Virus record (IMG/VR): IMGVR_UViG_3300008117_000088
Coordinates: 1-64,000 of that record
Direction: 5' to 3' (one strand)
From: a virus
Length of the DNA stretch: 64,000 nt
Both the position numbers and the translations under genes were made by a program. The notes below the pieces were generated by a model. It ran no database searches. It worked only from the letters and a program-made list of their open reading frames with translations, and was not told the DNA's origin. Below are positions 1,470 to 44,441 of the stretch, in pieces. The first letter of the stretch is position 1. Every line of letters starts with the position of its first letter.

Positions 1470-1670
1470 CTAAATCTTTTCGCATTCTGTGCGGATGTAG
1501 TCACGCAACTCAAATATTAATTCATCTGCTTCCATAGTGTCTTCATAGCCTTGTTCTTCAAGGTATTCGAAGAAATCACGAGATCCAACAAGGATAGGTA
1601 ACTCTCCGAGATCCGGATGCCAGATAACACCAATAATGTCATCTCTTTCAACAATAAACGGCTCTTTCAT
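1470..1670 (-). CDS. acidic hypothetical protein
   Basis: ORF track, start trimmed to ATG coupled with upstream stop (TAATG at 1670). Confidence 0.55.
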   Translation of the reverse strand: MKEPFIVERDDIIGVIWHPDLGELPILVGSRDFFEYLEEQGYEDTMEADELIFELRDYIRTECEKI

Positions 1671-1825
1671 TAATAACCTCCAAGGCATTGATCTGAATGC
1701 GTATGTATCCAGCGGGACTCATTGTACGCTTCCTTATTCGGAGCATATAACCAGAATCCACAAGCGCCACATTGACCACTCCACTCTTCCGCAAAGAAGT
1801 CGTACTCCATAAGCTTGTATCGCAT
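1670..1825 (-). CDS. 51-aa Zn-binding hypothetical protein (CGAC...HTH...C)
   Basis: Translated by hand: MRYKLMEYDFFAEEWSGQCGACGFWLYAP...HTHSDQCLGGY. Confidence 0.55.
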   Translation of the reverse strand: MRYKLMEYDFFAEEWSGQCGACGFWLYAPNKEAYNESRWIHTHSDQCLGGY

Positions 1826-1900
1826 GGGGGCCGACTCTACTCCCTAGGCTACTGTGTGACAAATTGAGGTGTTACCTACATTTGAGACCTGGCCCCCCTT

Positions 1901-1999
1901 TGTGATTTTGGCCACATTTAACCCTGGGGGGGTCAGCTTTGTGAGATGCGCCACATTATTACAAACCTACTTCCGCTAACTCAGCGTGTCTGCCATAGT
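1901..1999 (+). promoter_or_regulatory. early promoter module 1 with two CRP-like boxes
   Basis: TGTGA-N6-CCACA at 1901-1916 and 1940-1955; AAACCTAC; TTCCGC (1971)-17 bp-CATAGT (1994). Confidence 0.7.
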
Positions 2000-2041
2000 T
2001 CAACCATCAACACCGACCGAGTGTTGGTAAAGGGGCAACAA

Positions 2042-2326
2042 ATGGCAATCACAGCAGAAAACGCAAAGCGCATGATGTTAATCACCTCAAGCGCAAACCT
2101 CAGCGACGAGGACTTCCCGTTCTTTCGCAATCACATCACATCATTCAGCGAGTGGCTGGTATCCGAGGCAATCAACGACCTAGTGCGACTAGGTGTAGAT
2201 AAAGACCTTGCTTCCTCAATGCTCAACACCATCTCCCACATCTCAAGCATGGCGGGCGCAACCAATCTCTTTGATTACGGCGTGAGTGCCACAATCTTTG
2301 AGGAAAACGGACTTCGTGATGCGTAG
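2042..2326 (+). CDS. early hypothetical protein
   Basis: SD AAGGGG before ATG 2042. Confidence 0.7.
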   Translation: MAITAENAKRMMLITSSANLSDEDFPFFRNHITSFSEWLVSEAINDLVRLGVDKDLASSMLNTISHISSMAGATNLFDYGVSATIFEENGLRDA

Positions 2327-2480
2327 TCCTACTTACTATCGAATTCGAACACTTGTTCGGGTCTTATTCTGGACATCATTAGTCATAGGTATCTATTACC
2401 TAGCCACTCACATCAACTGGGTTGGCGATGGATACTGCTGGGGAACAATCACCGAGTGCTTCTTCGAGGAGGGGAAATGA
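2319..2480 (+). CDS. small membrane protein
   Basis: Hydrophobic segment LVRVLFWTSLVIGIYYLA; overlaps upstream stop. Confidence 0.65.
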   Translation: MRSPTYYRIRTLVRVLFWTSLVIGIYYLATHINWVGDGYCWGTITECFFEEGK

Positions 2481-2587
2481 CAGACGGCGAGATGATTGAC
2501 CAAATCATGGAATGGATCAACACGGACGGCGAACAGCTATCTGATGAAGATGTCATGAACAACATTAGGGAAATGCTCAAACAATAG
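2477..2587 (+). CDS. 36-aa acidic protein MTDGEMIDQIMEWINTDGEQLSDEDVMNNIREMLKQ
   Basis: ATGA overlap; SD GGAGGGG. Confidence 0.65.
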   Translation: MTDGEMIDQIMEWINTDGEQLSDEDVMNNIREMLKQ

Positions 2588-2602
2588 AGTTGCCCCACAA
2601 CA

Positions 2603-2634
2603 GCGGAGCGCCTGCCAATCGGTGGGCGCTTCGT
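2603..2634 (+). terminator. hairpin ending cassette 1
   Basis: GCGGAGCGCCTGCC-AATC-GGTGGGCGCTTCGT. Confidence 0.6.
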
Positions 2635-2648
2635 CTTGCTCGGCGAAA

Positions 2649-2789
2649 TGTTTGTGTTGGTCAGCCCACCCACCCTGACTCAACCCTAAAGGGAATAGGG
2701 GGGAGAGAAGCTCGAACAGATGTTCGGCCAGGAATGTGATGTAGATAACAACAAAGCCTATTCCGCTAACTGTGAGAAAGTGAGAAGGT
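2649..2789 (+). promoter_or_regulatory. early module 2
   Basis: TGTTTGTGTTGG 2649; CCCACCCACCC 2665; TGTGA-N6-TAACA 2735; TTCCGC 2761-17-GAAGGT 2784. Confidence 0.75.
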
Positions 2790-2837
2790 TCTCCTATCGG
2801 TGAAACAGAAGTAGCCGATAAGAAAGAAGGGGCAAAG

Positions 2838-3302
2838 ATGACCAAAGTCATCACTTACGGCTCAGCAGTAGAAGCGATAGACGCTCTCATGCTGGAGCAT
2901 GTAAATAACGCACCACTATCAGCAGACCTCGCTGAAGTTGTGGCGTTCGCAGTAAATAACGACCTACAAGTTCGGGATTATATTCTCGGATTACTACCTG
3001 ATGTTCTAACGGCACAAGGAGCGATTAGTTTCGTATCCGACCTGTTGCCACTCGTAGCGGAAGCCGACCGAGTTCCGTTCTACTCCGTATTATCCGCCTT
3101 CTACTCTGAAGCAGGGGATAACGACCTCGCCCACGCTTCACTATTCACAGCGCAGAGTCTAAATCCTGATTACTCTCTCGCTAAGTTGCTCTCTCGGGTT
3201 CTTGCCTCGGGTATGCCAATGGATTTCGCAAGCATGCGTGCGGAACTTCATCCGAAGGTTGTCGAAACCCTTACGGAGAATAGGGAACTGGTCATTTCCT
3301 AG
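2838..3302 (+). CDS. helical hypothetical protein (possibly DUF4192-like)
   Basis: SD GAAGGGG; VRD and YSLAKLL..L..G.P pattern. Confidence 0.65.
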   Translation: MTKVITYGSAVEAIDALMLEHVNNAPLSADLAEVVAFAVNNDLQVRDYILGLLPDVLTAQGAISFVSDLLPLVAEADRVPFYSVLSAFYSEAGDNDLAHASLFTAQSLNPDYSLAKLLSRVLASGMPMDFASMRAELHPKVVETLTENRELVIS

Positions 3303-3310
3303 AACTCACG

Positions 3311-3342
3311 CCGACCCCCACTCGCAAGGGTGGGGGGTTCGG
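3311..3342 (+). terminator. GC-rich hairpin with GCAA loop
   Basis: CCGACCCCCACTC-GCAA-GGGTGGGGGGTTCGG. Confidence 0.6.
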
Positions 3343-3371
3343 TGGATCGCGCCGGCCGCAGCTCGCGCAAA

Positions 3372-3494
3372 TGTTTGTGTTGAGACCCGCCCACCCTAGT
3401 CTCTGACTTACTTCGTAAGGGAGTTGTTGAGAGAGTTCGTGTGGCGCACATCACATCAAACCTACTTACGCTAACTAACGAGATAAGCAAAACT
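3372..3494 (+). promoter_or_regulatory. early module 3
   Basis: TGTTTGTGTTG 3372; CCCGCCCACCC 3386; TGTGG-N6-TCACA 3440; TTACGC 3466-17-AAAACT 3489. Confidence 0.75.
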
Positions 3495-3532
3495 AAGAGT
3501 GTTGGTGAAGGTCATCAACGGAAGGGGCAGTA

Positions 3533-3910
3533 ATGAAAGTAAAAGTGCCTGTAAATCTGGTAATCGCTGGTCTGGAACGCAGAGTAGCAGAAAACCGAGA
3601 GGTATCAGCACGCAACCAAATCGTTCGTGATAAATACGAGCAAGACAAAAAATCATGGGCAGAAGCGGTTGGCAAACTACCACTAGAAATAGATGATGTT
3701 AGTTATTCCACATGGCGAAACTCAGTATCTATTTCTTACAAAGTTCCAAACGGAACACGCATACCTGATGAACCACGACTTGGCGATTTAGAAAGCGAGT
3801 TGGGTAGCCATGAGGTTGATGAAATCGCTAATGCTGTTCGTATCTTAGGCATGAGCGAAGATGAGTATGTATCAGCAAGCACCATGAAGGAAATCGGAAG
3901 GTATCTCTAA
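3533..3910 (+). CDS. early hypothetical protein
   Basis: SD GAAGGGG; ORF track. Confidence 0.75.
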   Translation: MKVKVPVNLVIAGLERRVAENREVSARNQIVRDKYEQDKKSWAEAVGKLPLEIDDVSYSTWRNSVSISYKVPNGTRIPDEPRLGDLESELGSHEVDEIANAVRILGMSEDEYVSASTMKEIGRYL

Positions 3911-4395
3911 TGGGGTTGGACATGTATCTAGGCGCTCGCTCTACAAATAGCGAGTATCAAGAGTTGGGTTATTGGCGCAAGGCTAACGCTGTTCATGGTT
4001 GGTTCGTTCGTGAGTGCGCTAATGGATTAGATGAGTGCCAAGAGATTTTTGTATCTCGTGAGCAACTTCTAAAACTCCGTTCGGATTGTAATAATGCTCT
4101 CGCAAACCGAGAGAACGCAGTTCCGAATAATGAGGACAATGTAGTTATCAAGCAACCTGTTGGTAGCGGTCAAGACCTTGCTCAGTTCATCATGGAGAAC
4201 ATGAAAGCCGAGCAACAAAAGATTGGCACTACTCTGGTGAGTGATGACCCACTTCAGCCAACGGCTGGTTTCTTCTTCGGCTCAACCGAGAAAGATGAGT
4301 GGTATTACAACGACCTGATGGAAACCATTGACATCATAGATAAGGCGCTCGCCTTAGGTGATGATTGGCAAGTTATCTACCAAGCAAGTTGGTAG
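3910..4395 (+). CDS. conserved phage protein (MGLDMYL...YWRKANAVHGWF...YQASW family)
   Basis: Recognisable conserved phage motif; TAATG coupling. Confidence 0.8.
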   Translation: MGLDMYLGARSTNSEYQELGYWRKANAVHGWFVRECANGLDECQEIFVSREQLLKLRSDCNNALANRENAVPNNEDNVVIKQPVGSGQDLAQFIMENMKAEQQKIGTTLVSDDPLQPTAGFFFGSTEKDEWYYNDLMETIDIIDKALALGDDWQVIYQASW

Positions 4396-4404
4396 GTTGC
4401 CCCA

Positions 4405-4439
4405 AGCGAGTTGCCCCCGAAAGGGGGCGCTCGTTTTTT
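4405..4439 (+). terminator. intrinsic terminator
   Basis: GCCCCC-GAAA-GGGGGC stem plus T-run. Confidence 0.8.
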
Positions 4440-4464
4440 AGGGAACGCCAAACCCGAAGCCACT

Positions 4465-4582
4465 TGTTTGTGTTGGCTCCCACCCACCCTGAGCCTGATC
4501 CCTAAAGGGATAGGGAAAGAGAGCTCGTGTGATGTGGATCACTACAAAGCCTATTGTGCTAACTAGTGCTAGGCATTAGATT
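4465..4582 (+). promoter_or_regulatory. early module 4
   Basis: TGTTTGTGTTGG 4465; CCCACCCACCC 4479; TGTGA-N6-TCACT 4528; TTGTGC 4554-17-TAGATT 4577. Confidence 0.75.
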
Positions 4583-4619
4583 GGGTCTAGTTAGGAGATA
4601 CCTAACGGAAGGGGCAGAC

Positions 4620-4721
4620 ATGATGCTAATGGCGACATGTGTAGAGTGCGAGAGGGTGTTCAACCTTCTTGATGAGAATGATGCGAATGAGGTGGCATAT
4701 GGACACGATTGTGAGTCCTGA
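4620..4721 (+). CDS. 33-aa Zn-binding micro-protein (CVEC...GHDC)
   Basis: SD GAAGGGG; MMLMATCVECERVFNLLDENDANEVAYGHDCES. Confidence 0.7.
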   Translation: MMLMATCVECERVFNLLDENDANEVAYGHDCES

Positions 4722-4929
4722 GTCTCAAAAGTTTTACTCTAAGTATTATGGCGATTTAGTGGGCGCCACGATTCTTAGTTATGACGGGATGGTAGAGGAT
4801 GAGTTTGGAATGTATCCATTCCCTACATTTACTGTCCGGTTCAAGGATGGGCAGAAAGGTCAGATTCAGATCTATGCTGATGAGGAGGGTAATGGTGGCG
4901 GGTTCATCTCCGGATTAGCCTTGCCATAG
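4699..4929 (+). CDS. hypothetical protein (DEEGNGGG motif)
   Basis: ORF track; start either 4699 or GTG 4711. Confidence 0.65.
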   Translation: MDTIVSPESQKFYSKYYGDLVGATILSYDGMVEDEFGMYPFPTFTVRFKDGQKGQIQIYADEEGNGGGFISGLALP

Positions 4930-4938
4930 TAGATTTCG

Positions 4939-5037
4939 AGGTAGGTGCGTCAAAGCGGTTTATTTCCTTTCTTGCTCCCGCCAAGCGCATTCATGATCCG
5001 CCACACTTCTCGGGGAGATGTAGCTGCGTGCCTACCT
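4939..5037 (+). ncRNA. candidate structured 3'-UTR/small RNA
   Basis: AGGTAGGTGCG (4939) can pair with CGTGCCTACCT (5027), enclosing further stems and a pyrimidine loop. Confidence 0.35.
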
Positions 5038-5070
5038 ATTCCACAGCTGAGGCCGCCGGCCGCGGGGAAA

Positions 5071-5184
5071 GTTTGTGTTGGCCCACCCGCCCCGTTAAGG
5101 GAGTTGTTGTTATTCAGCTGTGATTCAAATCACAAGAGAAACTTTACAAACCTACTACCACGAAAGAGATATACATGAGAAGGT
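5071..5184 (+). promoter_or_regulatory. early module 5
   Basis: GTTTGTGTTGG 5071; CCCACCCGCCCC 5082; perfect TGTGA-N6-TCACA 5119; TACCAC 5156-17-GAAGGT. Confidence 0.7.
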
Positions 5185-5223
5185 TCACCTACCTAGTCAG
5201 GGCGACTAGAGAAAGAAGGGGTT

Positions 5224-5832
5224 ATGGGTTATTACATTGACCTAGTAGATGCAGAGTGGGAGATAACTGAATCTCCTGAATCTCTTGCAACTATTAGAGA
5301 GATGCCAACTAAATACCATGCTATTAAGCGTGGTGGCTCATCCAATGGCGAGAAGTGGTTCTCCTGGATGAATGATACTGATATCGAAACCGCGGAGACT
5401 GTAGAGAGTGTCTTCAATCAACTCGGATTCGAGACTGAAAAAGTAGACGGCGGGTTCAAACTTGCTTACTACAATAGCAAAACTGGTCAAGAAGATTTAT
5501 TTTTGGCGGTTATGGCTCCCTTTACCAAGGATGGTTCATACATTGAATGGCGAGGTGAGGACGGCGCGTTATGGAAGTTTGAAATCCACAACGGTCGCAT
5601 GTTTCGCTCCGAGTCTGAGATTATCTGGACCAACTCCCAACCGTATTCTTACTGGCACTATGATTTAGAGCCAGCAACAATGCAAGGACGTCAGATTAAT
5701 ATTGACCCACTTGCTCCCGCTGATGAGTTAGCGCAAGCGCTCAAAACTGCTAAAGAATGGGATGATGCGGACCAGGCATACTATGCCAAACTCCGTGCTG
5801 AACGTGAAGAGGCAGAGAAAGCCAACGCGTGA
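5224..5832 (+). CDS. early hypothetical protein (GSYIEWRGEDG motif)
   Basis: SD GAAGGGG; ORF track. Confidence 0.75.
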   Translation: MGYYIDLVDAEWEITESPESLATIREMPTKYHAIKRGGSSNGEKWFSWMNDTDIETAETVESVFNQLGFETEKVDGGFKLAYYNSKTGQEDLFLAVMAPFTKDGSYIEWRGEDGALWKFEIHNGRMFRSESEIIWTNSQPYSYWHYDLEPATMQGRQINIDPLAPADELAQALKTAKEWDDADQAYYAKLRAEREEAEKANA

Positions 5833-5963
5833 GAACTTTGCACGTATGTTGCTCGCACATACAGCATGAGAACTATTGCCCATGCTGTATGAGCGAGTGC
5901 GAAGCAGAGAAGGATTCTGGAATGCAAGGTCCTTACTGCAAGTGCAACAGATGTAGCAGCTAA
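5829..5963 (+). CDS. possible 44-aa Cys-rich micro-protein
   Basis: GTGA overlap; 9 Cys; overlaps strong hairpin 5851-5898. Confidence 0.4.
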   Translation: MRTLHVCCSHIQHENYCPCCMSECEAEKDSGMQGPYCKCNRCSS

Positions 5964-6001
5964 GGCTGCTGATGATCCAAGCTATGCCCCGCTAGGATCC
6001 A

Positions 6002-6041
6002 AACGAGCTCGGCCGCTGCCCCGGCCGGGCATCGTTTTTTT
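6002..6041 (+). terminator. intrinsic terminator
   Basis: CTCGGCCG-loop-CGGCCGGG stem plus T7. Confidence 0.75.
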
Positions 6042-6073
6042 AGGGCGCCAAATCTTATTTCCCGAATGCCTAA

Positions 6074-6210
6074 TGTTTGTGTTGGCCCGCCCTCCCCATT
6101 TATATACTAGGGAATATTCATATATTCATTCAGCTGCTGAAGAGAGCTGCAGTCATGTGATGTAAATCACTACAGACCTACTTACGCTAAAAGAGAGATG
6201 GACCTATGGT
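6074..6210 (+). promoter_or_regulatory. early module 6
   Basis: TGTTTGTGTTGG 6074; CCCGCCCTCCCC 6086; TGTGA-N6-TCACT 6156; TTACGC 6182-17-TATGGT 6205. Confidence 0.75.
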
Positions 6211-6253
6211 TCAGTCACTGGTTACAGATAGTAACTAAGTGAAGGGATAGAGA

Positions 6254-6508
6254 ATGCGTACTCTGAGAGAGATAGCGCTGGAGATAGATTGGGAATGCCG
6301 GGGTAAGTCTTGGTATCCATATGCAGAAGCATATGTCACTCCCATGATGTCACTCGATACCATGCAAGACCGGTACTTCGAGGATTCAGCAGAATCAATA
6401 GTCTCCTATGCACTGGCTAATCTCCAGTCATGGAGAGGAGACAATGCCCGTCGAATTAAGGCGGAACTCAATGCAATGCTCAAGTCAGCAAGGAAGGTGA
6501 ATGCATGA
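6254..6508 (+). CDS. conserved phage early protein (WRGDNARRIKAEL motif)
   Basis: SD GAAGGG; recognisable small phage family. Confidence 0.75.
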   Translation: MRTLREIALEIDWECRGKSWYPYAEAYVTPMMSLDTMQDRYFEDSAESIVSYALANLQSWRGDNARRIKAELNAMLKSARKVNA

Positions 6509-6957
6509 CAGCTGAGACATACAATCCGCATCAGCTAGTAACGTTGCGGGATATCAATGACGGGGCCGAAAGCTTCGTCATCCATAAAGCTACAGACCTC
6601 GAGTGGAAGCTCGAGACAGCTAAGCTCAATCGCCGGGAGCTGGATACAGCTCAAGCTAAGATTGGAGCTATCACTTCGGAGATGACCAGTGAAAGCTGGT
6701 ATCACTCGAATACAGATAAAGATGAAGTACTAAGTAAGCTCGAAGAGATTCTGGGCGTCAACCCTACAGCTACGATCAGCATCACAGCTACGATCGAGGT
6801 GTTCATTACAGCTGAGGTGCCGCTGAAAGAGCTCGACAGCTTCGATTCAGATTCACTGATCCACGACTCGATCACGATAGATGCGAGCGCTTGGGGATCA
6901 GAAGTCAATGTAGATGACTGGAATCTACAAAGCTCAGATTGGGAGGAACAGAGCTAA
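6505..6957 (+). CDS. acidic hypothetical protein (AGCT-saturated gene)
   Basis: ATGA overlap; ORF track. Confidence 0.7.
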   Translation: MTAETYNPHQLVTLRDINDGAESFVIHKATDLEWKLETAKLNRRELDTAQAKIGAITSEMTSESWYHSNTDKDEVLSKLEEILGVNPTATISITATIEVFITAEVPLKELDSFDSDSLIHDSITIDASAWGSEVNVDDWNLQSSDWEEQS

Positions 6958-7008
6958 CTCAGAGACAACGCACCCCGGGCCAGCTTCGCGGCGGCTCGGG
7001 GCTCGCGT

Positions 7009-7122
7009 TGTTTGTGTCGGCCCACCCACCCCATAGGGAATATATATAAGCTGCGGGCTCGGCCTGGTGTGAGATAGATCACTGCAAACCTACTTACACG
7101 TAGAGGGAGAGTCATATACCTT
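7009..7122 (+). promoter_or_regulatory. early module 7
   Basis: TGTTTGTGTCGG 7009; CCCACCCACCCC 7021; TGTGA-N6-TCACT 7068; TTACAC 7094-17-TACCTT 7117. Confidence 0.75.
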
Positions 7123-7144
7123 AAGCAATGAAGAGAGGGGTCTC

Positions 7145-7846
7145 ATGAAACTTAAACGGTCCAAAGATCGTAAAGTGGCTAATAGTCTTACTCCTAATGG
7201 GAAGACTGCAAGAATTGCTAATTCTTTCGGTTTACCCGCGGGGAGAGAGTACAGCTGCCCGGCGCAGACTTCAATTTGCGCTCGCATATGTTATGCCGGC
7301 AAGCTGGAGAAAATCTATCCAACAGTGCGTACTAACCTTATGCACAATTGGGAGATGCTTAAAGATGCAGATCATGACACGATGGAGAGTCTACTCGATG
7401 AGATGATTGTGGAATTCAAGGCGGAATGTGACAAGTGGTCCGCGCCTAAAGAATTTCGCATTCACTGGGACGGGGACTTCTTCTCCTCAGATTATGCATT
7501 CGCATGGAAGCATGTGATCATGAACCATCCGGACGTTCGCTTCTGGGTCTACACACGTGTAGAGTCTGCAGCTTATATGCTCCGGAACCTAGAGAATCTC
7601 ACTTTATACTTCTCCACTGATAAAGAGAATCTCGAAAGCGCTCAACGCCTACAGCGTGAAGGCGTGTTACTGGCAGGATTACACGATACTTTCGATCAAG
7701 CCAAGGATATGCTCCTGGCGCTAGGCGAGAGATCTGCAAAGTGTCCCGAGCAACGCAAGCAAATTCCCCTGGAAGGCGCCTGCATTGCATGCAAGATTTG
7801 CGTCAAGGGCACTAACAATATAACGTTCAGCATTACTAAGAGATAG
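7145..7846 (+). CDS. GP88-family protein (radical-SAM-like Cys motif)
   Basis: SFGLPAG...SCP...C..ICYA, RIHWDGDFF and WVYTR motifs. Confidence 0.75.
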   Translation: MKLKRSKDRKVANSLTPNGKTARIANSFGLPAGREYSCPAQTSICARICYAGKLEKIYPTVRTNLMHNWEMLKDADHDTMESLLDEMIVEFKAECDKWSAPKEFRIHWDGDFFSSDYAFAWKHVIMNHPDVRFWVYTRVESAAYMLRNLENLTLYFSTDKENLESAQRLQREGVLLAGLHDTFDQAKDMLLALGERSAKCPEQRKQIPLEGACIACKICVKGTNNITFSITKR

Positions 7847-7854
7847 GGATCAAT

Positions 7855-8124
7855 ATGGGATACACAACAGCGTTAGACTTAGCCGGCCAAATTCACCTGG
7901 ATCAAGGCCTGGCCCATCACTTAACCGGCAATCATTATCCGCCGGTACCGTTAACGATGGTCGATCCATGCAAAGCTGCAATCGATGCGTACCTGGATGA
8001 AGACTACGACCGGGAGATAGAGCTACCGGATCCAATTACGTATAAGGGCCGCACTACAGCGCCGGCACGGGCGATAGTAGATCAGCATCACTTGCACCCA
8101 TTCGTAGAATCACTGCAAGAATAA
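7855..8124 (+). CDS. conserved actinophage protein (HLTGNHYPPVP...HHL)
   Basis: ORF track; motif typical of small phage proteins. Confidence 0.7.
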   Translation: MGYTTALDLAGQIHLDQGLAHHLTGNHYPPVPLTMVDPCKAAIDAYLDEDYDREIELPDPITYKGRTTAPARAIVDQHHLHPFVESLQE

Positions 8125-8170
8125 TAGAGTTGCTCCCCTAGGTACTACCCTTCCACCTAGGGTCGAGCAC

Positions 8171-8214
8171 GGAGAAGCCGCGTTGTTTCAGGTCAGCGCG
8201 GCTTTCTTCTTTTT
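8171..8214 (+). terminator. intrinsic terminator
   Basis: GAAGCCGCGTTG...CAGCGCGGCTTTC plus T-run. Confidence 0.75.
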
Positions 8215-8245
8215 AAAAGGGAAATGCCTACTCCCAAAAGCCAAA

Positions 8246-8331
8246 TGTTTGTGTTGACCCTCCCACCCCTCATCCCTTCGGGATAGGGTGCGGCCGAAAA
8301 GTCAAGTAGCTTTGCTGTGATATTGCTCACA
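8246..8331 (+). promoter_or_regulatory. module 8, left half
   Basis: TGTTTGTGTTG 8246; CCCTCCCACCCC 8258; perfect TGTGA-N6-TCACA 8316. Confidence 0.7.
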
Positions 8332-8334
8332 CAG

Positions 8335-8485
8335 TGAGAGAGAGGCTCGGCCAGGCCGCCTATTCCAGTTAGTTTCACGTGAAACAAGCGATCTTCGAAG
8401 AAGAGAGCATGAATAAGAGAGATAGCTATTGGCAGAGAGAGCAGAGAGAGAAGAGAGAAGCCAAAAAGAGAGATAAGAGAGATAG
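8335..8485. repeat. GA-rich low-complexity tract
   Basis: Repeated GAGAGA/AAGAGAG; partial complement CTCTCTCTCTGC near 8666. Confidence 0.6.
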
Positions 8486-8711
8486 CCGACATTAAATGTC
8501 GACAAATCGACTAGTCGATTAGGCTACTGCATTGACCGGTCATGGCCTCCCCGGCTGTGCAGCCAGCTTTACAGCCTCGATCGGCTGAAACTATCCGATA
8601 TCACTGCAAGCTAATTGCTACCCAATGGCTGGCAGGGCAAAGAGATGTCAGTCCCTCTCTATATCCTCTCTCTCTGCATGTATAAGCCAATCTATTTGGG
8701 GCCGATTTTTC

Positions 8712-8766
8712 TGTGAGTCAAGTCACAGCAAACCTACTACCCCTAAGACGGCATATACGTAATGAT
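8712..8766 (+). promoter_or_regulatory. module 8, right half (promoter)
   Basis: Perfect TGTGA-N6-TCACA 8712; GCAAACCTAC; TACCCC 8738-17-AATGAT. Confidence 0.7.
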
Positions 8767-8803
8767 TAGAAAGTAAGGGCAAGAACTCAACGAAAGGTAT
8801 CAA

Positions 8804-9076
8804 ATGAGTCTCAAATGGGAACTCGATTATCACCAAGGTAAGTACAACGAAGCCAAGGCTAAGGAAAACGAAGCGTTCCACGCAATCCTCAAGATCATCA
8901 CTGATTTAGGCGGAAAGCGTGAGCACGTAGACAAGGCGATCGGTCTATGGGTAGATGGCACTTTGGCATCCAACGATATGGGATGGCACAGAGCATTTAG
9001 GTCTGAGGCTGAGGACAAGATTCAAGAACTTCGCAAGTTAGTCGATATGGATGAAGACGCGGAGTTGTTGAAATGA
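8804..9076 (+). CDS. hypothetical protein
   Basis: SD GAAAGG; ORF track. Confidence 0.7.
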   Translation: MSLKWELDYHQGKYNEAKAKENEAFHAILKIITDLGGKREHVDKAIGLWVDGTLASNDMGWHRAFRSEAEDKIQELRKLVDMDEDAELLK

Positions 9077-9180
9077 CGGGCAGACAAGTAGTCTGTCCTA
9101 CCTGCGGTAAAGAATTGGAGGTGAGGTCGGGCATCTTTGCCCACCAAACCCTCGCCCGCCATATGAAGGAGCATGAATGA
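9073..9180 (+). CDS. 35-aa C2H2-type zinc-finger micro-protein
   Basis: MTGRQVVCPTCGKELEVRSGIFAHQTLARHMKEHE; ATGA overlaps at both ends. Confidence 0.7.
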   Translation: MTGRQVVCPTCGKELEVRSGIFAHQTLARHMKEHE

Positions 9181-9431
9181 GCACTGATGATATATCTGTA
9201 GGCGATGCAATTATTGTAAAGGCGCTGTTGAACGGCACCTTTACTGATCCCGATGGAAACAAAGCAACATTAACTGTTAAGGGTTTTGTTGGTGCAAATA
9301 TCATTGCAGCTCGTGTGGCGTTGCTCACGCAACCACGCCCACTATCTGAAAGTGATATCACTGAGATTGTTAAGTTTCTCAAGGATGCAGAGACTGCATT
9401 GAACATGCTTGAGGACAAGGAACAAGAATGA
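9177..9431 (+). CDS. hypothetical protein
   Basis: SD AAGGAG; ATGA overlaps. Confidence 0.7.
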   Translation: MSTDDISVGDAIIVKALLNGTFTDPDGNKATLTVKGFVGANIIAARVALLTQPRPLSESDITEIVKFLKDAETALNMLEDKEQE

Positions 9432-10063
9432 AAGCGGTGTCGTTATTCGCCGGGGTCGGAGGTTTCGATCTTGCATTAGAACGTGCGGGTGTACCTGTTG
9501 TTGCATCTGTAGAGATTGATAAGCATGCACGTGGTGTACTGCAACAACAATTTCCTAACACAACATTATTGGAGGATGTAAAAAATGTCACAGGCGATCA
9601 ACTTAGAGAACTCGGATTCGAAGGTTCTGACGGAATTATTGTCGGAGGCTTCCCGTGTCAAGACCTCAGCGTTGCTGGTAAGCGAGCAGGTCTTGCTGGA
9701 GGTAGAAGCGGACTCTTCTGGGAAATCTGTCGCATCCTCGACGAAACGAAAACGAAATGGTTCGTCCTCGAAAACGTCCCCGGTCTTTTGTCATCTAACG
9801 AAGGACGAGATATGGGAACCGTCATCCAAGCGTTGGTTGAGCGCGGGTATGGGGTCGCATACAGGATTCTTGACGCTCAATACTTTGGAGTCGCCCAAAG
9901 AAGACGTCGTATCTTCATTGTCGGATGTCTTGGAGACAACGGGCGAGCACCTGCAGAAGTACTTGCTCTCATCGAAGGCATGCGAGGGTATTCTGAGGCG
10001 ATCAACCAAAAAGGGAAAACAACTTCCTCCCTTGCTTCACTCAGCTTTGGAGAACATGACTAA
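9428..10063 (+). CDS. DNA (cytosine-5) methyltransferase, N-terminal catalytic part (motifs I-VIII)
   Basis: FAGVGG (I), GGFPCQD (IV), ENV (VI), QRRRRIF (VIII). Confidence 0.92.
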   Translation: MKAVSLFAGVGGFDLALERAGVPVVASVEIDKHARGVLQQQFPNTTLLEDVKNVTGDQLRELGFEGSDGIIVGGFPCQDLSVAGKRAGLAGGRSGLFWEICRILDETKTKWFVLENVPGLLSSNEGRDMGTVIQALVERGYGVAYRILDAQYFGVAQRRRRIFIVGCLGDNGRAPAEVLALIEGMRGYSEAINQKGKTTSSLASLSFGEHD

Positions 10064-11463: not shown

Positions 11464-11472
11464 ATAGAATAA

Positions 11473-11520
11473 CCCCCAGCATTAAGCATCGGCTGTGACC
11501 GACATGCTGGGGGCTTTTCT
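11473..11520. terminator. terminator at convergence of plus and minus transcription
   Basis: CCCCCAGCAT...ATGCTGGGGG stem followed by T-rich run. Confidence 0.75.
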
Positions 11521-12019: not shown

Positions 12020-14049
12020 TGATTCTCCTTAATTAATTTGATCTCACATGCATCAGTTGTGCAGTATGCCTCACCAATCGCATCGGCTGCAAGTCCTGCG
12101 TATACTCCGCTGAAATCTATGGGGAATAATTTCATCGTTGCATCTTCATATTCTTTTTCAGTAATCTGGGTGTACGGCATCTGCGGATAGGTCTCGTTCC
12201 CCATCGGTAAGAAGGAAACGGTTTTGAGCTGTCCGTCGAACATGTGAAGCGCTGTACCTACAGCTGACTTCTCCGTATCTTTGTTAAAGGATACTGTCAC
12301 TGAAACAGAATTGTCGGACCAATAGTATTGAGCGGTCGAAGCAAGGTGCATCTTTTCATAAATTGATACGTCTTTCTCCGAGCGTTTAGCATTAGATTTA
12401 ATAGGGAAGAACACCACAGAGGTTGTCTTTGGTGATTCTGATGCCTTCTCTACCCGATAGTTAGCCATCTTAAATAACGGCAACATCGGATCTTCATTGC
12501 TAAATCTAATAGCGCGGAGGAAGTATTCACCTCCTGGTGTCCAGTGAACTCCTGGTGATTCACCTGCAAGTATTGAAACTGTTCCTGATGGCTTAACTGT
12601 TGTCATCTTGATTGACTCACGGGTACATAGCCACTCTGAATATGTAACGTCGTATTGCTTTACGACTTCATATCCTGCATCCATCCATTCACGTAATGCC
12701 GGCATGCCTTTGGTATCTGCAAAGTTAGCTACGCCTGAAATAGATGTTCCAATACGGCGATTGCGTTGCATGATTGCATTGGTTTCTTCCCAGTGGGTAG
12801 GCAACAGGGTTACAGTCTTGGCATATAAATACGCAAACTTAAGTGTGCGCTTGAAATCTTCAAGGCTGTCATGACGATTTAAATAAGTTTCTACAAGTGT
12901 GCACATTTCATATGACTCAAGGCTCTGTTCAGCACATGGGTTATACCCAGCTACACGCCAGTCTTTGTTATTAACACCATCTTTGATACGCCCATACTTA
13001 CGGCTCATGTCCATCCATACAACACCTGGCTCACCGTTTAACGCAATACCATCTACGATCTTGTTTAAGTCCATACCAACGGTTGCGTCAATGGAGTTAT
13101 TGCTCATCCATGCCCAGCCTGGATTCTTAGGATCATAGGAGTTGCGCTCCGGAAATACTTCAGCGTTCTTTAGGTTAAGGAAGTTCTCGTCATCCGCTCT
13201 ACCAATTAAAAGCTCAGCAGAACGACGTACGTTGCCGCTTACAACACAAACCCCGATTAGGTTTCCAAGATCGGCTATATCAGTGCGAGTTAACTTCTCT
13301 CCAGCCCTACCCGTAAACAGTTTACGAATATGGTTGTGAAGTTTTTCTAACGGCTCGTGCCCGGCCGCTGTTCCCCCAAAAGTTTTGATTGGCGTACCTG
13401 CTGGGCGGACCTCTTTGTAATCAAATAGTGGAGCCTTCTGATCTGGTCGGAGGTAGGAATTGATGAGGAGTGTGACGGAATCAACCCATCCTTCTCTGGT
13501 GTCTGGGACGACATGAGTGTCTCCTTCCTGTGGTTCGTAGATTTGGAATTCTTTGTCTGCGCCTTTATCGTCAAAACCAACTCCAACGCCAAGCATCGAT
13601 GCTTCCATTAGAAATGCGAATGGTCTTGCGGGGTCTATTTTAGTCATTGATGTGGTTGAAACGAATGCACAGTTCTGCAAAGCTGCAGAGTTTTTTTGCT
13701 CGTTTACCAGTGGGGTTCCCATAACCCACAACCCACGTCCGGGTGGAGTCCACTTCAAATGAAACAGGCGATCAAAGGCTTCTTTGGCTGATGCCTGAGC
13801 TCGTGCATCATTCCATGGGAGTCGGTTGGATTTGCAGTGGTCTTTTTGTAATGAATACATGCCATTGATTACTCGCTCACAAACGTCTACCCAAGTTTCC
13901 TTTGTCCCGTCCTCTTTGAGTCTTGAGTAAGTTCGTAGGAATGTGATCTCTCCTACTGAGTTTCCGGCTGCATCTTTATAGCCCCAAGGGACCTGCTTCT
14001 CCTTGTAGGTGGACACGAACTCGTCCGCTAGTCGAAAACTTAATGACAT
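12016..14049 (-). CDS. nrdJ: class II (adenosylcobalamin) ribonucleotide reductase
   Basis: PPGRGLW, NCAF, GNVRRSA, NPCAEQ, TTVKPSGT, C-terminal CTTDAC. Confidence 0.93.
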   Translation of the reverse strand: MSLSFRLADEFVSTYKEKQVPWGYKDAAGNSVGEITFLRTYSRLKEDGTKETWVDVCERVINGMYSLQKDHCKSNRLPWNDARAQASAKEAFDRLFHLKWTPPGRGLWVMGTPLVNEQKNSAALQNCAFVSTTSMTKIDPARPFAFLMEASMLGVGVGFDDKGADKEFQIYEPQEGDTHVVPDTREGWVDSVTLLINSYLRPDQKAPLFDYKEVRPAGTPIKTFGGTAAGHEPLEKLHNHIRKLFTGRAGEKLTRTDIADLGNLIGVCVVSGNVRRSAELLIGRADDENFLNLKNAEVFPERNSYDPKNPGWAWMSNNSIDATVGMDLNKIVDGIALNGEPGVVWMDMSRKYGRIKDGVNNKDWRVAGYNPCAEQSLESYEMCTLVETYLNRHDSLEDFKRTLKFAYLYAKTVTLLPTHWEETNAIMQRNRRIGTSISGVANFADTKGMPALREWMDAGYEVVKQYDVTYSEWLCTRESIKMTTVKPSGTVSILAGESPGVHWTPGGEYFLRAIRFSNEDPMLPLFKMANYRVEKASESPKTTSVVFFPIKSNAKRSEKDVSIYEKMHLASTAQYYWSDNSVSVTVSFNKDTEKSAVGTALHMFDGQLKTVSFLPMGNETYPQMPYTQITEKEYEDATMKLFPIDFSGVYAGLAADAIGEAYCTTDACEIKLIKENQ

Positions 14050-14178: not shown

Positions 14179-15645
14179 TTACTCTTCGATTGCGCCCTTA
14201 ATTATCTGAGTTGTCTGGTCCTCATTGAGTCCTTCATTAGGTAACTCTTTAAGAACTTGAGCCTTCTCCCCAAAAATTTGGGATAGAACTCCGGCAGATC
14301 CTTGGCGCTCTACAGTCATCCGAATGAACTCTCTTGAGTCATCCAATTCCTTAGTTGTTTTGATAAGTTTGAATAACCTATCGATCTCTTGCGATACATT
14401 GGGGTCAGCGTATCCGCCGTTCATTTCCTCTGCAAATCGCATAAAAGCTACCCTTTGACCCTGCATTTCAATGATTGCATTGATCAAACTCTTAAGTTGT
14501 TCTTTAGTCTTAACCTCTACTGGAAGCTTAAAGGCGCAGGTATTTTGAGGTTTAAATGCTGGACAATTTGATGCTACAAAGCATGTATCGCACTGTCGCA
14601 AACTACTATCTCTGGTTTGCATAACTGGTACATCTTTAAGTACATCGTTACCTGAATCATCCTTCTCAATAATGGTCTTAACACCAAAACCAAACACTGG
14701 AAGATTGGTCATTTCCTCTGGATTTCGCGGTTCAAGTTTCCGCATCTCAACCCCTGACCTATCCGATATTGCGGGTAGGTTTTCCGCAAAGTCTTCACCA
14801 GCTGGATCCTCGAAACTATCGTATATGTTCGGATCTTTGGTCATACTCAACCTCGTTTCTAGTTGGTCAAACGACCAAACCGCTAACTTGCATAGTTCTT
14901 CAGAATCATCCGCTACGATCTTTTCGAAGCTTAAATTCGCCTTTTCATAAATTGCTTTATGACGAGGCCTGGCCTGTTCTTTCATGCTTTTTGGATACCG
15001 GACCAATCTTGTACCGTCCCAAACAATGGTCTCACCTCTAGTCATAGGTGACAGCCAAGACATGGTGCTGGCGGTCTCTACGGGCACCTGACGCAGGTTA
15101 TCTGGTCGAATGGTCCCCATTGCATGGAGTCTGGTCTCGTGCTTGTTCTTAAGCCCTCTGGCGGTCCTAGAAAGCCATACAGACTCGTCTATGGCTTCGC
15201 CTGGTATGGATATATCCAAATACCGTTCTGCCAGTTCCTCAAGCCCAGACTGCCCGCTTTCGGTCCTCCAGACCGGCAAGAACTTGGCTGGTGGAACCTC
15301 GCCCCAGACGGTATCTCGTTGATCTCGTATAAAGTCAGGTCCAACTTGATGGTGCGCTATCTCTGTGAAGTAGGTAATTCGGTCTATGTTGTTCATTATG
15401 AACTCTTCATAGTCTGCCGCAAACTCTTCAAGGGCTACTCGTTCTAACTCTTGAGTCTTTGGTATGCCGGGGTGAACCAGAATTGCCATATCCTCAGGAA
15501 AATAGTTAGCTAACAGGTATGTTTTAGTTTTAGGCAATCCGCGTTTGCTGGCTCTCCAATAGCTAAACCCAACTGCCGTAGCTCCGGCTGATCCAAGCAG
15601 TAGCCGATTACTAGGGACCTCAGCCCCTAGGTAAAAAAGTCTCAT
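14179..15645 (-). CDS. TGT/DpdA-like TIM-barrel protein with C-terminal Cys4 and helical domain (apparently degenerate)
   Basis: RLHAMG...VPVETASTMSWL...RGET resembles the HxxG...SxDSSSW region of TGT-like folds; CDTC..NC...C. Confidence 0.45.
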   Translation of the reverse strand: MRLFYLGAEVPSNRLLLGSAGATAVGFSYWRASKRGLPKTKTYLLANYFPEDMAILVHPGIPKTQELERVALEEFAADYEEFIMNNIDRITYFTEIAHHQVGPDFIRDQRDTVWGEVPPAKFLPVWRTESGQSGLEELAERYLDISIPGEAIDESVWLSRTARGLKNKHETRLHAMGTIRPDNLRQVPVETASTMSWLSPMTRGETIVWDGTRLVRYPKSMKEQARPRHKAIYEKANLSFEKIVADDSEELCKLAVWSFDQLETRLSMTKDPNIYDSFEDPAGEDFAENLPAISDRSGVEMRKLEPRNPEEMTNLPVFGFGVKTIIEKDDSGNDVLKDVPVMQTRDSSLRQCDTCFVASNCPAFKPQNTCAFKLPVEVKTKEQLKSLINAIIEMQGQRVAFMRFAEEMNGGYADPNVSQEIDRLFKLIKTTKELDDSREFIRMTVERQGSAGVLSQIFGEKAQVLKELPNEGLNEDQTTQIIKGAIEE

Positions 15646-43392: not shown

Positions 43393-44441
43393 TACTCAAT
43401 CTCCTCAATTAACTCTCCGGCTCTGGTGAAAGATCCGATTTTGGTGGTTATGGTGTCCACTTGCTTATTTGGCAACCTATATTCTACCGAAACTGTCAGT
43501 ACTAGGTCACTTAATCCTTGGTTAGGTTCTTTTTCAATTTCAACTCTAATGAGCTTTAGTTCAGGCAAAAACTCTCCAAAAGAAGAAGTGATGGTCTGTT
43601 GTACAAAATCAATGACCGAGCCTTCCGGTTCAAACAATGCGTCGGTCGCAATGCTGCCGTAGTTTGGTCTCATTGGTCTTTCCCCAAATCGAGTAAAGAT
43701 TGCTCCAAATACCCGGTCTGCCCACTGTTTAGACTCTAGGTTGTTTGTGTTGATGGCACCTGAGGCATTGAAAGAAAAAGGAAGCGATATATCTCCGCCT
43801 TCAAACATAGCCCAAGCCGGGGTGTTTGGTCTCGGTTTATATTTACCAATTAAGCTTACAGTAGCAATAATGCCAGGCGTAGCGGGACCTACCCCTGCGG
43901 CATCAGAACTTATAAACGTATTGGTGTTGCTTGCGGATGCAACAAATTGAATGTAATCCCCGGCGTCTAAATCTAAAATAAGAGCTACGGTCATTGTAAT
44001 TTCAGAATTGTTTCCAGCTAATGTAATTTTAGTATTGCTATCAGGAATATCTACACCATTTTTTCTAAACCAAATATTAGCTGTCCCAGAGTTAGCGTTT
44101 GTTTTAGTAAGCATAGAAGAAAACTGAACAAAATAATCTCCAGTTTCTTCCACATATATTTTATCCCCATCTAAATACGTTTTATTTGCGTCTCCCTCAA
44201 CCCAACTAGTGTTGATTAAGGTAGGGGTATTAACCCCAATAGCCTGATCTCCTGTTGTGTAAAAAGTTCCATAAGGGTAGTTAATTTGGTTGATTGCACC
44301 ACCTACAGGCCAGGCCCATTCGGTCACGGCTTCGCCAAGCACTTGAGGTATGTAAAGTTTTGCTCTACCTAGGTCTAACGGATCGTCTGCGTCCGCTATT
44401 ACCCCACGATAGATACCATAAAAACGATTATCAGAGGACAT
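43392..44441 (-). CDS. fusion: gp5/gpV OB-fold with C1q-like insert plus gp25-like sheath initiator
   Basis: YGIYRG...DP..GR...WAWP; L.AGDYIQ; FEGGD then ISLPF...T..GERPMRP.YG. Confidence 0.75.
   Translation of the reverse strand: MSSDNRFYGIYRGVIADADDPLDLGRAKLYIPQVLGEAVTEWAWPVGGAINQINYPYGTFYTTGDQAIGVNTPTLINTSWVEGDANKTYLDGDKIYVEETGDYFVQFSSMLTKTNANSGTANIWFRKNGVDIPDSNTKITLAGNNSEITMTVALILDLDAGDYIQFVASASNTNTFISSDAAGVGPATPGIIATVSLIGKYKPRPNTPAWAMFEGGDISLPFSFNASGAINTNNLESKQWADRVFGAIFTRFGERPMRPNYGSIATDALFEPEGSVIDFVQQTITSSFGEFLPELKLIRVEIEKEPNQGLSDLVLTVSVEYRLPNKQVDTITTKIGSFTRAGELIEEIE

Follow-up and report, generated by a model that had tools for sequence, protein, structure and literature searches.

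Why does an early gene region repeat the same short run of cytosines between one small gene cassette and the next? We addressed this question in the virus record IMGVR_UViG_3300008117_000088 of IMG/VR, a 96,030-bp phage genome with direct terminal repeats (a 114-bp exact repeat was confirmed). Its first 64,000 nucleotides (nt) are the stretch analyzed here, which we call the window. The element in question contains a tract, CCCNCCCNCCC, in which three C3 runs are separated by single bases. The original prediction, made from the letters of the window, listed seven such tracts with spacers varying among A, G and T, suspected selection on them, and read them as a possible G-quadruplex (G4) or recombination signal of the opposite strand. 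The tracts and their variable spacers were confirmed. They begin at positions 2665, 3386, 4479, 5082, 6086, 7021 and 8258, all on the + strand, compared with 0.25 copies expected from dinucleotide shuffles, and none of 100 shuffles gets to seven. The whole genome holds no copies beyond these seven, and the complementary pattern GGGNGGGNGGG does not occur on the + strand of the 96,030-bp sequence. The fourth CCC noticed in three modules is also present, following the tracts at 2665, 4479 and 8258 with loops of 8, 10 and 4 nt, respectively.

The tracts are not isolated words. Immediately 5′ of all seven stands TGTTTGTGTTG, which is exact in five cases and has one mismatch at 5070 and 7009, and the 10-mer GTTTGTGTYG, hereafter the box, is exact before every tract with a gap of 1-5 nt. 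Together they form a bipartite 22-nt signal, in which the box comes first and the tract, or C-patch (C3-D-C3-D-C3), is the invariant second half. A literature search for the 10-mer returned primer hits only, and we found no description of the box or the C-patch. A short open reading frame starting at an (A/T)TG that overlaps the box was considered and rejected; GTG never serves as the start, the lengths range from 9 to 87 amino acids, and the tract falls in all three frames.

Is this signal peculiar to one genome? An exact-pattern scan of IMG/VR viral contigs gave 63 loci with box and tract on ~50 contigs, many of them ~96 kb long, with arrays of up to nine elements per relative contig. To avoid circularity, the set was re-anchored on the box alone, which yielded 234 unique boxes in 606 kb (~2 expected), 130 of which are followed by a perfect tract. 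In the tract-anchored check, an exact box lies upstream of 139 of 140 unique tracts. C never occurs as a spacer among the 130 unique elements, and broken tracts are rare (~5-8 of ~138 C-type elements, e.g. CCCACCCACCT and CCCACCTCCCC). With tracts this close to invariant, the suspected selection on the tract is borne out. The original prediction had named common G-run-disrupting substitutions in homologous modules among the observations that would speak against its G4 or recombination reading; such substitutions are not common, and it is a fourth run that most elements lack. Of the remaining 104 boxes, some precede TTGG...CCAA hairpins or GGGCT repeats and others form box/anti-box inverted pairs 65-130 bp apart. 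Because these boxes have other followers, the box counts as the general signal, and what most often follows it is the C-patch. In the lineages that have a perfect downstream anti-box, CCAACACAAAC (L017:3760-3870 and 2338-2450; G002-G004 and G006-G009), the box/anti-box stem reaches up to 20 bp and encloses two hairpins, sometimes together with the C-tract, and its length would suit an RNase III-type substrate.

How is the C-patch presented? In 60 of the 130 elements, the gap between box and tract is 3-6 nt and the gap bases pair with bases 3′ of the tract, forming a short hairpin (hairpin 1). At junctions 1-3 of the window, the tract is the loop of such a 5-bp hairpin, the arms of which differ (GTCAG/CTGAC, GAGAC/GTCTC and GGCTC/GAGCC). 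More than 20 different complementary arm pairs occur in the whole set. The pairs were counted per gap class, as the MAFFT alignment A2 misaligns the arm insertions, and a single consensus bracket string was dropped. In the 3-nt-gap class, read in a single register, 85 of 108 pairs are Watson-Crick, with 3, 4 and 2 pair types at stem positions 1-3. The complementarity of hairpin 1 arms with their own partners is 3.45 of 5, compared with a mean of 2.57 and a maximum of 2.93 for shuffled partners. In half of the elements, the tract has no stem. A second structure, the mini-hairpin (hairpin 2) between the tract and GGGART, forms perfect stems of at least 5 bp in 41% of the elements and in 6% of shuffles; it has 70 distinct sequences, in which TTC(G) and TAAA loops are frequent. 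Stem mismatches are G·T in 40 cases and A·C in 11 (p = 6e-4 against the composition expectation), which indicates that the C-rich sense strand is the folding strand, most simply as RNA. No covarying cis partner of the tract was found in the 80 nt upstream, which include the terminator arm (own 4.81, permuted 4.76), in the ~140 nt downstream, where own tracts equal permuted tracts, or at the ribosome-binding site (RBS) of the next gene (51 of 200 permutations; Fisher p = 0.47). The tract therefore behaves as a displayed single-stranded patch. The C-patch is always kept single-stranded, being either unpaired or placed in the loop of a short hairpin in which changes in one arm are compensated in the other. 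A separate test for base pairing between the C-tract and the purine block 3′ of it led to rejection (Fisher p = 0.26 for CCCTCCC/GGAGG and p = 0.15 for CCCACCC/GGTGG).

These results bear directly on the idea of a G4, or a DNA:RNA hybrid G4, on the bottom strand that initiates recombination or blocks a polymerase. Three G3 tracts with 1-nt non-G loops make the most stable G4 core, a fourth tract lies within 12 nt in 47 of the 130 elements, and the G4 at pilE of Neisseria gonorrhoeae is a precedent beside a recombining locus, also with G3 tracts and very short loops (PMC3547852). However, a fourth C3 tract within 12 nt is absent from 83 of the 130 elements (64%). In the window, four tracts are available at one of the seven sites when loops are limited to 7 nt, the usual G4 limit, which 8258 alone satisfies, and at three of seven when loops of up to 12 nt are allowed. 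Folding of the G-rich strand (ViennaRNA with G4 energies and DNA parameters, a prediction only) placed a quadruplex in the best fold of 44 of 130 elements and of two of the seven in the window. Where a fourth tract is present, it is the 5′ arm of the covarying mini-hairpin and has a GGG partner on the same strand (CCCTAAAGGG, ATCCCTTCGGGAT), and the structural selection (G·T:A·C 40:11) acts on the C-rich strand. A hybrid G4 with nascent RNA needs a G-rich non-template strand, whereas the G-rich strand here is the template for the cassette genes, which excludes the hybrid in that direction. The pilE G4 has four tracts and requires transcription of a cis small RNA (sRNA) with the G-rich strand displaced (PMC3547852), in contrast to the mostly three tracts, the template G-rich strand and the selection on the C-rich strand in this phage. 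Judged from these predictions, G4 capacity is not the conserved property; the headline of the original prediction is unsupported, and we regard a G4 function as very improbable. A further argument against G4, from 7-deazaguanine DNA, was considered and not used. A 488-amino-acid protein encoded at 14179-15645 carries the PHROGs label queuine tRNA-ribosyltransferase (E = 5e-54), but the DpdA label comes from PHROG only; as the protein does not match Pfam TGT and QueC was not found in the genome, a DNA modification system based on 7-deazaguanine is not established.

Where does the signal stand? The + strand block of small genes spans 1.9-11.5 kb, and between 2.6 and 8.3 kb it consists of separate cassettes of one gene or gene pair each, with seven gaps in a common order. 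Each gap runs from a GC-rich terminator hairpin through a short A/T linker to the box, the C-tract and a variable mini-hairpin, and then through GGGA(R)T, often RGAGAGAG, and a TGTGA-N6-TCACA palindrome to a CAAACCTACTTACGCTAAC block, which is probably the promoter. A leader of ~60 nt, a G-rich Shine-Dalgarno (SD) site and ATG follow the promoter block. A GC hairpin (at least 6 bp with at least 4 GC pairs) ends 0-6 nt 5′ of the box in 72 of 94 scored cases of the C class and in 71 of 88 others, about three quarters. The distance from box to promoter is ~85-100 nt at six junctions and ~465 nt at junction 7, where the terminator is nevertheless adjacent. The steady hairpin distance and the variable promoter distance indicate that the element is anchored to terminators. 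The control region of the first cassette (1901-1980, + strand; gene at 2042) has twin TGTGA-N6-CACA palindromes (1901-1916 and 1940-1955) and a CAAACCTACTTCCGCTAAC promoter block, but no box, tract, GGGAAT or GAGAGAG, and hence the element is not part of the promoter. At the other end of the block, the last + strand gene is followed by a plain bidirectional terminator (11465-11520, assigned to neither strand) with no box after it. The element is thus missing before the first promoter and after the last gene, and it is found only at terminator-to-promoter junctions between co-directional cassettes; it is a junction element because it is anchored to terminators and present only where a co-directional cassette follows.

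This placement also bears on the possibility that the box and C-patch are an upstream control element of the next promoter, a DNA site bound by an early protein of the phage, such as one encoded in the first cassette, which would switch on or boost the cassettes downstream. Such delayed-early control would be functionally like the MotA box of T4 middle promoters. Apart from the first, which would then count as immediate-early, every cassette promoter has the element upstream of it in the same orientation; RGAGAGAG often abuts the operator palindrome; and the operators vary by lineage, whereas box and tract are constant. An activator site is nevertheless rather unlikely, given that the promoter distance varies and the hairpin distance is fixed, that the 2-5-nt insertions between box and tract are compensated by base pairing and not by helical phasing, that a G·T bias is unexpected for a duplex site, and that solitary boxes in late genes (see below) have no promoter context. 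Two other promoter readings were rejected. In a sigma70-, SigB/F- or SigH-type reading of box...GGGAAT, the spacing ranges from 14 to 40 nt. For a phage-polymerase promoter, no RNA polymerase or sigma factor was recognized among the annotated phage proteins, and the hairpin arm after the box would go untranscribed.

The seven junctions, all on the + strand, differ in detail. The fold energies given here are for RNA folds of the 75 nt upstream of the box. Junction 1 has a GC-rich terminator hairpin 3′ of the preceding small genes (2590-2646, -34.4 kcal/mol), followed by an element at 2650-2709 with the box at 2650-2659, hairpin 1 at 2660-2679 (GTCAG/CTGAC) with the C-tract CCCACCCACCC (2665-2675) in its loop, a mini-hairpin at 2684-2693 (CCCTAAAGGG), GGGAAT at 2691 and GGAGAGA at 2702. 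At junction 2, a terminator hairpin (3306-3346) and a small GC hairpin (3349-3368) together span 3306-3368 (-38.6 kcal/mol). The element (3373-3436) comprises the box at 3373-3382, hairpin 1 at 3382-3403 (GAGAC/GTCTC) with the tract CCCGCCCACCC as its loop (3386-3396), a mini-hairpin at 3407-3419 (CTTAC-TTC-GTAAG), GGGAGT at 3419 and AGAGAG at 3430. Junction 3 has an intrinsic terminator with a T-run (4404-4439) and then a 25-nt AGGGAACGCCAAACCCGAAGCC extension; its element (4466-4524) has the box at 4466-4475, hairpin 1 at 4475-4495 (GGCTC/GAGCC) around the tract CCCACCCACCC (4479-4489), a mini-hairpin at 4498-4511 (ATCCC-TAAA-GGGAT) and AGAGAG at 4518.

Junctions 4-6 have arm-less elements with unpaired tracts. 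At junction 4, a GC-rich structured region that makes a weak terminator (4997-5066, -20.3 kcal/mol) ends 4 nt 5′ of the box. The element (5071-5112) has the box at 5071-5080, a G, the tract CCCACCCGCCCC (5082-5093) and CCCC-G-TT...GGGA-G-T (G type), and it ends in a GTTGTTGTT tail without GAGAGAG. Junction 5 has an intrinsic terminator with a T-run (6001-6042), a AGGGCGCCAAAT...GCCTAAT extension and an A-type element (6075-6147), in which the box and the tract CCCGCCCTCCCC (6086-6097) are followed by CCCC-A-TT...GGGA-A-T at 6110 and AGAGAG at 6141. At junction 6, the terminator hairpin (6967-7009) reaches the box directly; the element is again of the A type (7010-7050), with the box GTTTGTGTCG, the tract CCCACCCACCCC (7021-7032), GGGAAT at 7036 and a ATATATATAA tail. 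Junction 7 has an intrinsic terminator with a T-run (8172-8216), a AAAGGGAAATGCC...GCCAAAT extension and an element (8247-8290), an orthologous copy of which is retained in many relatives. Its box is followed by the tract CCCTCCCACCCC (8258-8269), a mini-hairpin at 8272-8284 (ATCCC-TTC-GGGAT) and GGGATAGGGT. This is the sole site with four C3 runs at loops of at most 7 nt, and its fourth run is the hairpin arm at 8274-8276.

Several further observations concern these junctions. The extra conserved extension of 25-30 nt between T-run terminator and box, at 4440-4465, 6043-6074 and 8217-8246, has the form AGGGnnGCCAAA...CCCRAWGCCnAAT and is common to many relatives; its GCCAA can pair with TTGGC at the box end. 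In 43 of 43 arm-less elements, the base after CCCC is the same as the base after GGGA (22 A/A and 21 G/G), which is an identity and not a Watson-Crick relation. The linked sites in the window are 5093-5104, 6097-6115 and 7032-7041. The 5-10 nt after the linked base resemble short tandem repeats starting there (ATATATAT, GTTGTTG and GTATGTATG). The link could reflect two ancient subtypes or a functional coupling. Palindromes of the CRP/GlxR type (TGTGA-N6-TCACA) lie ahead of every early promoter block, at 1901-1955, 2735-2750, 3440-3455, 4528-4543, 5119-5134, 6156-6171, 7068-7083, 8316-8331 and 8712-8727. The operator palindrome and promoter block of cassette A span 2735-2770, and the equivalent blocks, also on the + strand, are at 3440-3475, 4528-4563, 5119-5165, 6156-6191, 7068-7103 and 8712-8747; their -35 and -10 boxes (TTACGC-like, 17 nt, nAnnnT) were assigned by eye only. 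In relatives, the place of the palindrome is taken by TTATCCACA (DnaA-box-like, in L009 and L038), by CGTTATCAAATCGTTATA or GACACGCC, or by clear TTGACA -35 boxes. Junction 7 is followed by ~400 nt of non-coding sequence (8300-8700) with dense AGAGAG/GAGAGA purine repeats and a second palindrome, and the promoter is at 8712.

Does the same signal mark places of recombination? Relatives carry homologues of the early proteins in permuted order, and a box always separates one cassette from the next. With a slash for each boundary, the cassette order is A/BC/E/F/GH/IJ in the genome studied here and C/A/g1 B/E/F/GH/IJ in L059, and the orders include CE/B/A in L030, B/C/A in L054, AB/F/E in L022 and G/A/g1/J/I in L040. 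The box is also not confined to the early block. The genome has 13 copies on the + strand and one on the - strand, and three relatives have 1:9, 10:1 and 10:1. Solitary GTTTGTGTTG copies lie on the + strand of the late region at 43743-43752 and 55998-56007 in the window and at 64716, 72216, 79881 and 89485 in the remainder of the genome, which makes six boxes outside the early block, compared with 0.28 for words of the same composition. The copy at 43743-43752 is antisense within a - strand baseplate gene, and that at 55998-56007 is antisense within a - strand glycosyltransferase-like gene and is kept 10/10 at the syntenic site of G005, where the flanks are 57% identical. At syntenic late sites in relatives, the box is kept 10/10 with flanks 57-60% identical. 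In three genomes, the late-region boxes are either antisense to late genes or in gaps ahead of a GC hairpin. The only opposite-strand box (13242-13251) is on the sense strand of the ribonucleotide reductase (RNR) gene, where the codons are the same in relatives, and it is therefore explained by coding constraint. The box directly 3′ of the major head gene gives, in the rightward reading, the order box, hairpin and U-rich tail. The GC hairpin there (genome 72190-72262; L113:1690-1762) has a U-rich tail on the antisense (rightward) side only. It would be a one-way terminator against antisense traffic, and late transcription would continue into the next gene (SD GGAGGA, GTG start).

The box is specific to the phages and sensitive to direction. 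Chi and other polar DNA words, as well as the strand-specific nick sites of T5 and phiKMV-like phages, are known signals read on one DNA strand, and over-representation, placement of nearly all copies on one strand and presence inside genes are shared by the G/T-rich box. In a DNA-level polar signal, the G/T-only box would be recognized on a single strand, assisted by the C-patch, and would actively drive cassette recombination. It could be, for example, a strand-specific nick site of the T5 or phiKMV type, a Chi-like signal at which a phage-encoded helicase-nuclease stops or loads, or a preferred loading site for the RecA/UvsX-like recombinase of the phage. The strand polarity, the late boxes kept 10/10 in diverged coding sequence, the permuted cassettes and the inverted box/anti-box pairs of other lineages would fit such a signal, and the phage encodes a UvsX-like recombinase, a Cas4-type nuclease, an Mre11-like exonuclease and RuvC. 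We nevertheless consider it unlikely. In 41 genomes of the candidate host family, the box shows no over-representation, with counts close to those of the reversed-word control (0-6 copies per 1-2 Mb in sampled genomes, apart from the phage contig of G011), which speaks against a host Chi; with its 10-12 nt, the box also exceeds known Chi sequences in length. The covarying hairpins and the G·T bias beside the box favor a folded single strand, most simply RNA, and the position is fixed relative to terminator hairpins. Homology breakpoints mapped among relatives do not cluster at the box, although the mapping had 71 endpoints only and too few close pairs to locate the joints. Two other readings of the box were rejected, namely a mimic of host boxA/boxC, as the rrn sequence is unrelated, and a mimic of a CRISPR repeat, for which 185,579 species genomes were scanned, with single hits at chance level and phage-like contigs where hits were multiple.

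On late mRNAs, the box reads CAACACAAAC, the complement of the early-junction box. This is relevant to the possibility of a C-rich-loop regulatory RNA, similar to 6C sRNA or RsaE/RoxS, the C-patch of which would pair with G-rich RBSs, in cis at the next cassette on read-through RNA or in trans on host or phage mRNAs, or, in a variant, the box of which would pair with the CAACACAAAC words of late mRNAs. Pairing of C-rich loops with G-rich RBSs without a chaperone is established in Actinobacteria (PMC6486639), and the exact box complement occurs on late mRNAs at conserved sites. The early genes (starts 2820-8804) use G-run RBSs, with GAAGG(GG) in 7 of 18 early and 3 of 103 late genes; the late genes have AGGAG in 23 of 103 and AAGGA in 18 of 103. 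A GGGG-type RBS follows 37 of 107 C-type junctions and 11 of 62 others (p = 0.02). However, the tract shows no covariation with the RBS, as described above, nor with any cis sequence, half of the elements have no stem, and no promoter or terminator delimits an independent small RNA. A regulatory RNA of this kind is improbable. A search of positions 1500-9500 against Rfam found nothing at E ≤ 5 beyond two chance matches, and the 6C model (RF01066) was unmatched, so no known RNA family was assigned. Masking of the next gene's RBS in cis was also rejected, with weak GGGG enrichment only and no covariation. The 6C sRNA resembles the present element in displaying a C-rich loop on short hairpins, in its probable actinobacterial setting and in the G-rich RBSs (PMC6486639). 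It differs in having a C-run instead of the strict C3-D-C3-D-C3, in addition to the missing stems, transcription unit and covariation here.

The order of a linear box and a hairpin with a conserved loop, read on nascent RNA, is known from lambda nut and from the boxA-boxB-boxC of rrn operons. A nut-like processive antitermination signal, in which a boxA-like box and a boxB-like hairpin load a factor on RNA polymerase that has leaked past the terminator, so that later terminators are read through, would agree with this resemblance and with the sense-strand, RNA-like nature of the element. It is, however, difficult to reconcile with the order of terminator, element, operators and promoter; as the element precedes the next promoter, it is never part of a transcript started there. 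No exact box was found near rrn in five closed candidate-host genomes, and the boxA-like ACCUUGAGAACU... in their leader and spacer is unrelated, although the host assignment itself is only a hint. In addition, half of the elements are stemless and no N-like protein was recognized. We regard antitermination as quite improbable.

What function would then fit? Our tentative preference, held with less than even confidence, is a terminator-appended RNA signal that insulates the cassettes from each other and is read by a putative factor, with a secondary role as a homology patch for shuffling. Rightward sense transcription would be its target, and it would be read either in the nascent RNA or in the non-template strand. 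A sequence-specific factor would read the U/G-rich box and the adjacent C-patch; candidates are host RNA polymerase with its elongation and termination factors, an RNase, or a phage early protein. This factor would stop or cut RNA that has passed the hairpin. If read-through is stopped or cut in this way, each operator-controlled cassette is expressed only from its own promoter, and the same 22 or more nt at every junction would provide homology patches for cassette permutation, as with PeSL cassettes. Of the functions named in the original prediction, a protein site, termination and cassette recombination thus remain live, as the box abuts terminator hairpins and the cassettes are permuted with a box at their boundaries. 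A Rho utilization (rut) site, which is ~60-80 nt, C-rich, G-poor and unstructured, was rejected; the C stretch here is 11-13 nt and is followed by hairpins and the purine-rich GGGART/RGAGAGAG.

Several observations weigh against cassette insulation at the RNA level. Six of the 10 nt of the box are U, but the linker that joins it to the hairpin is usually AAAU, which falls short of an ideal U-tract. A canonical T-run terminator stands 25-30 nt 5′ of the box at junctions 3, 5 and 7, where a tail in the form of the box is therefore not required. No box follows the last + strand gene, although read-through from it would collide with the late genes. More than 230 copies of the 10-mer are exact. Terminator tails are not usually so uniform, and the exactness argues for a specific reader, yet a search for the reader among the phage proteins found neither an RNA polymerase nor a sigma factor, and no early protein had an informative family. 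Solitary boxes occur in late coding sequence without an adjacent hairpin, and some lineages pair the box with a perfect anti-box, which a single-stranded RNA signal does not obviously need. In a bolder version, the box and C-patch would be an address label for sequence-specific RNA-level control, with a dedicated factor recognizing GUUUGUGUUG beside the displayed C3-D-C3-D-C3 on every rightward transcript, combined with an antisense switch between early and late genes. The factor would be a phage endoribonuclease or termination factor, or a host factor unique to Actinomycetota, and the box complement on late mRNAs, for instance directly 3′ of the major head gene, would let early junction RNAs and late mRNAs pair. 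We give this version only a small chance.

The genomic context is that of a contractile-tailed phage with a GC content of 43.8%. The sheath, baseplate, major head protein, DNA polymerase, DnaB, primase and RNR are encoded on the - strand, as are the UvsX-like recombinase, the Cas4-type nuclease and RuvC. Among cultured phages, Streptomyces myophages of the BRock type come closest, with a sheath identity of only ~40%, and two early proteins match the actinophage families GP88 and DUF4192. Short element-bearing contigs are binned in metagenome-assembled genomes (MAGs) of freshwater Actinomycetota; one of them, L073 (CBFHTP010000044.1, 7.3 kb), an early-region-like phage contig with eight boxes, is in a Nanopelagicaceae MAG, of which it is probably a contamination. 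Freshwater Actinomycetota are the probable hosts of this family of uncultured myophages of ~96 kb, for which the binning is a hint and not proof.

Among known systems, the PeSL cassettes of T4-type phages are functionally the closest. The PeSL motif is described as a sigma70-like early promoter with a terminator stem-loop (Arbiol et al. 2010, PMC2839356; PMC4122927). The likeness is that a repeated intergenic motif brackets small, mostly uncharacterized early genes with their own promoter and stem-loop terminator, and that related phages differ by permutation, gain and loss of cassettes at the motifs, as permutation goes with boxes here. The defining feature of the PeSL motif is absent from the present element, the conserved core of which (box, C-patch and mini-hairpin) is neither promoter nor terminator, whereas the terminator hairpins and operator/promoter blocks are variable and the first promoter and last terminator lack it. 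Recombination between PeSL motifs is reported to give mini-circles. The present system belongs to another phage family, probably with actinobacterial hosts. The RNase III sites of T7 and the sib/tI region of lambda are structured RNAs between early genes that are active only on read-through or polycistronic RNA. They resemble the present elements in being conserved, structured and beside terminator-like hairpins, but they contain long irregular RNase III duplexes instead of an invariant 10-nt U/G box and a single-stranded 11-nt C-patch.

The analysis removes a tempting but wrong G-quadruplex annotation. It leaves a simple sequence marker of the early region and of cassette boundaries in metagenomic phage genomes, and possibly a compact genetic insulator. 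Across an abundant freshwater phage family, the conserved part of the cassette junction is neither promoter nor terminator but a near-invariant 22 nt with RNA-type covariation. The probable Actinomycetota hosts have no Hfq or ProQ, and their termination signals are poorly understood; finding the reader of this element could expose a new mechanism of termination, insulation or processing in phages of Actinomycetota.

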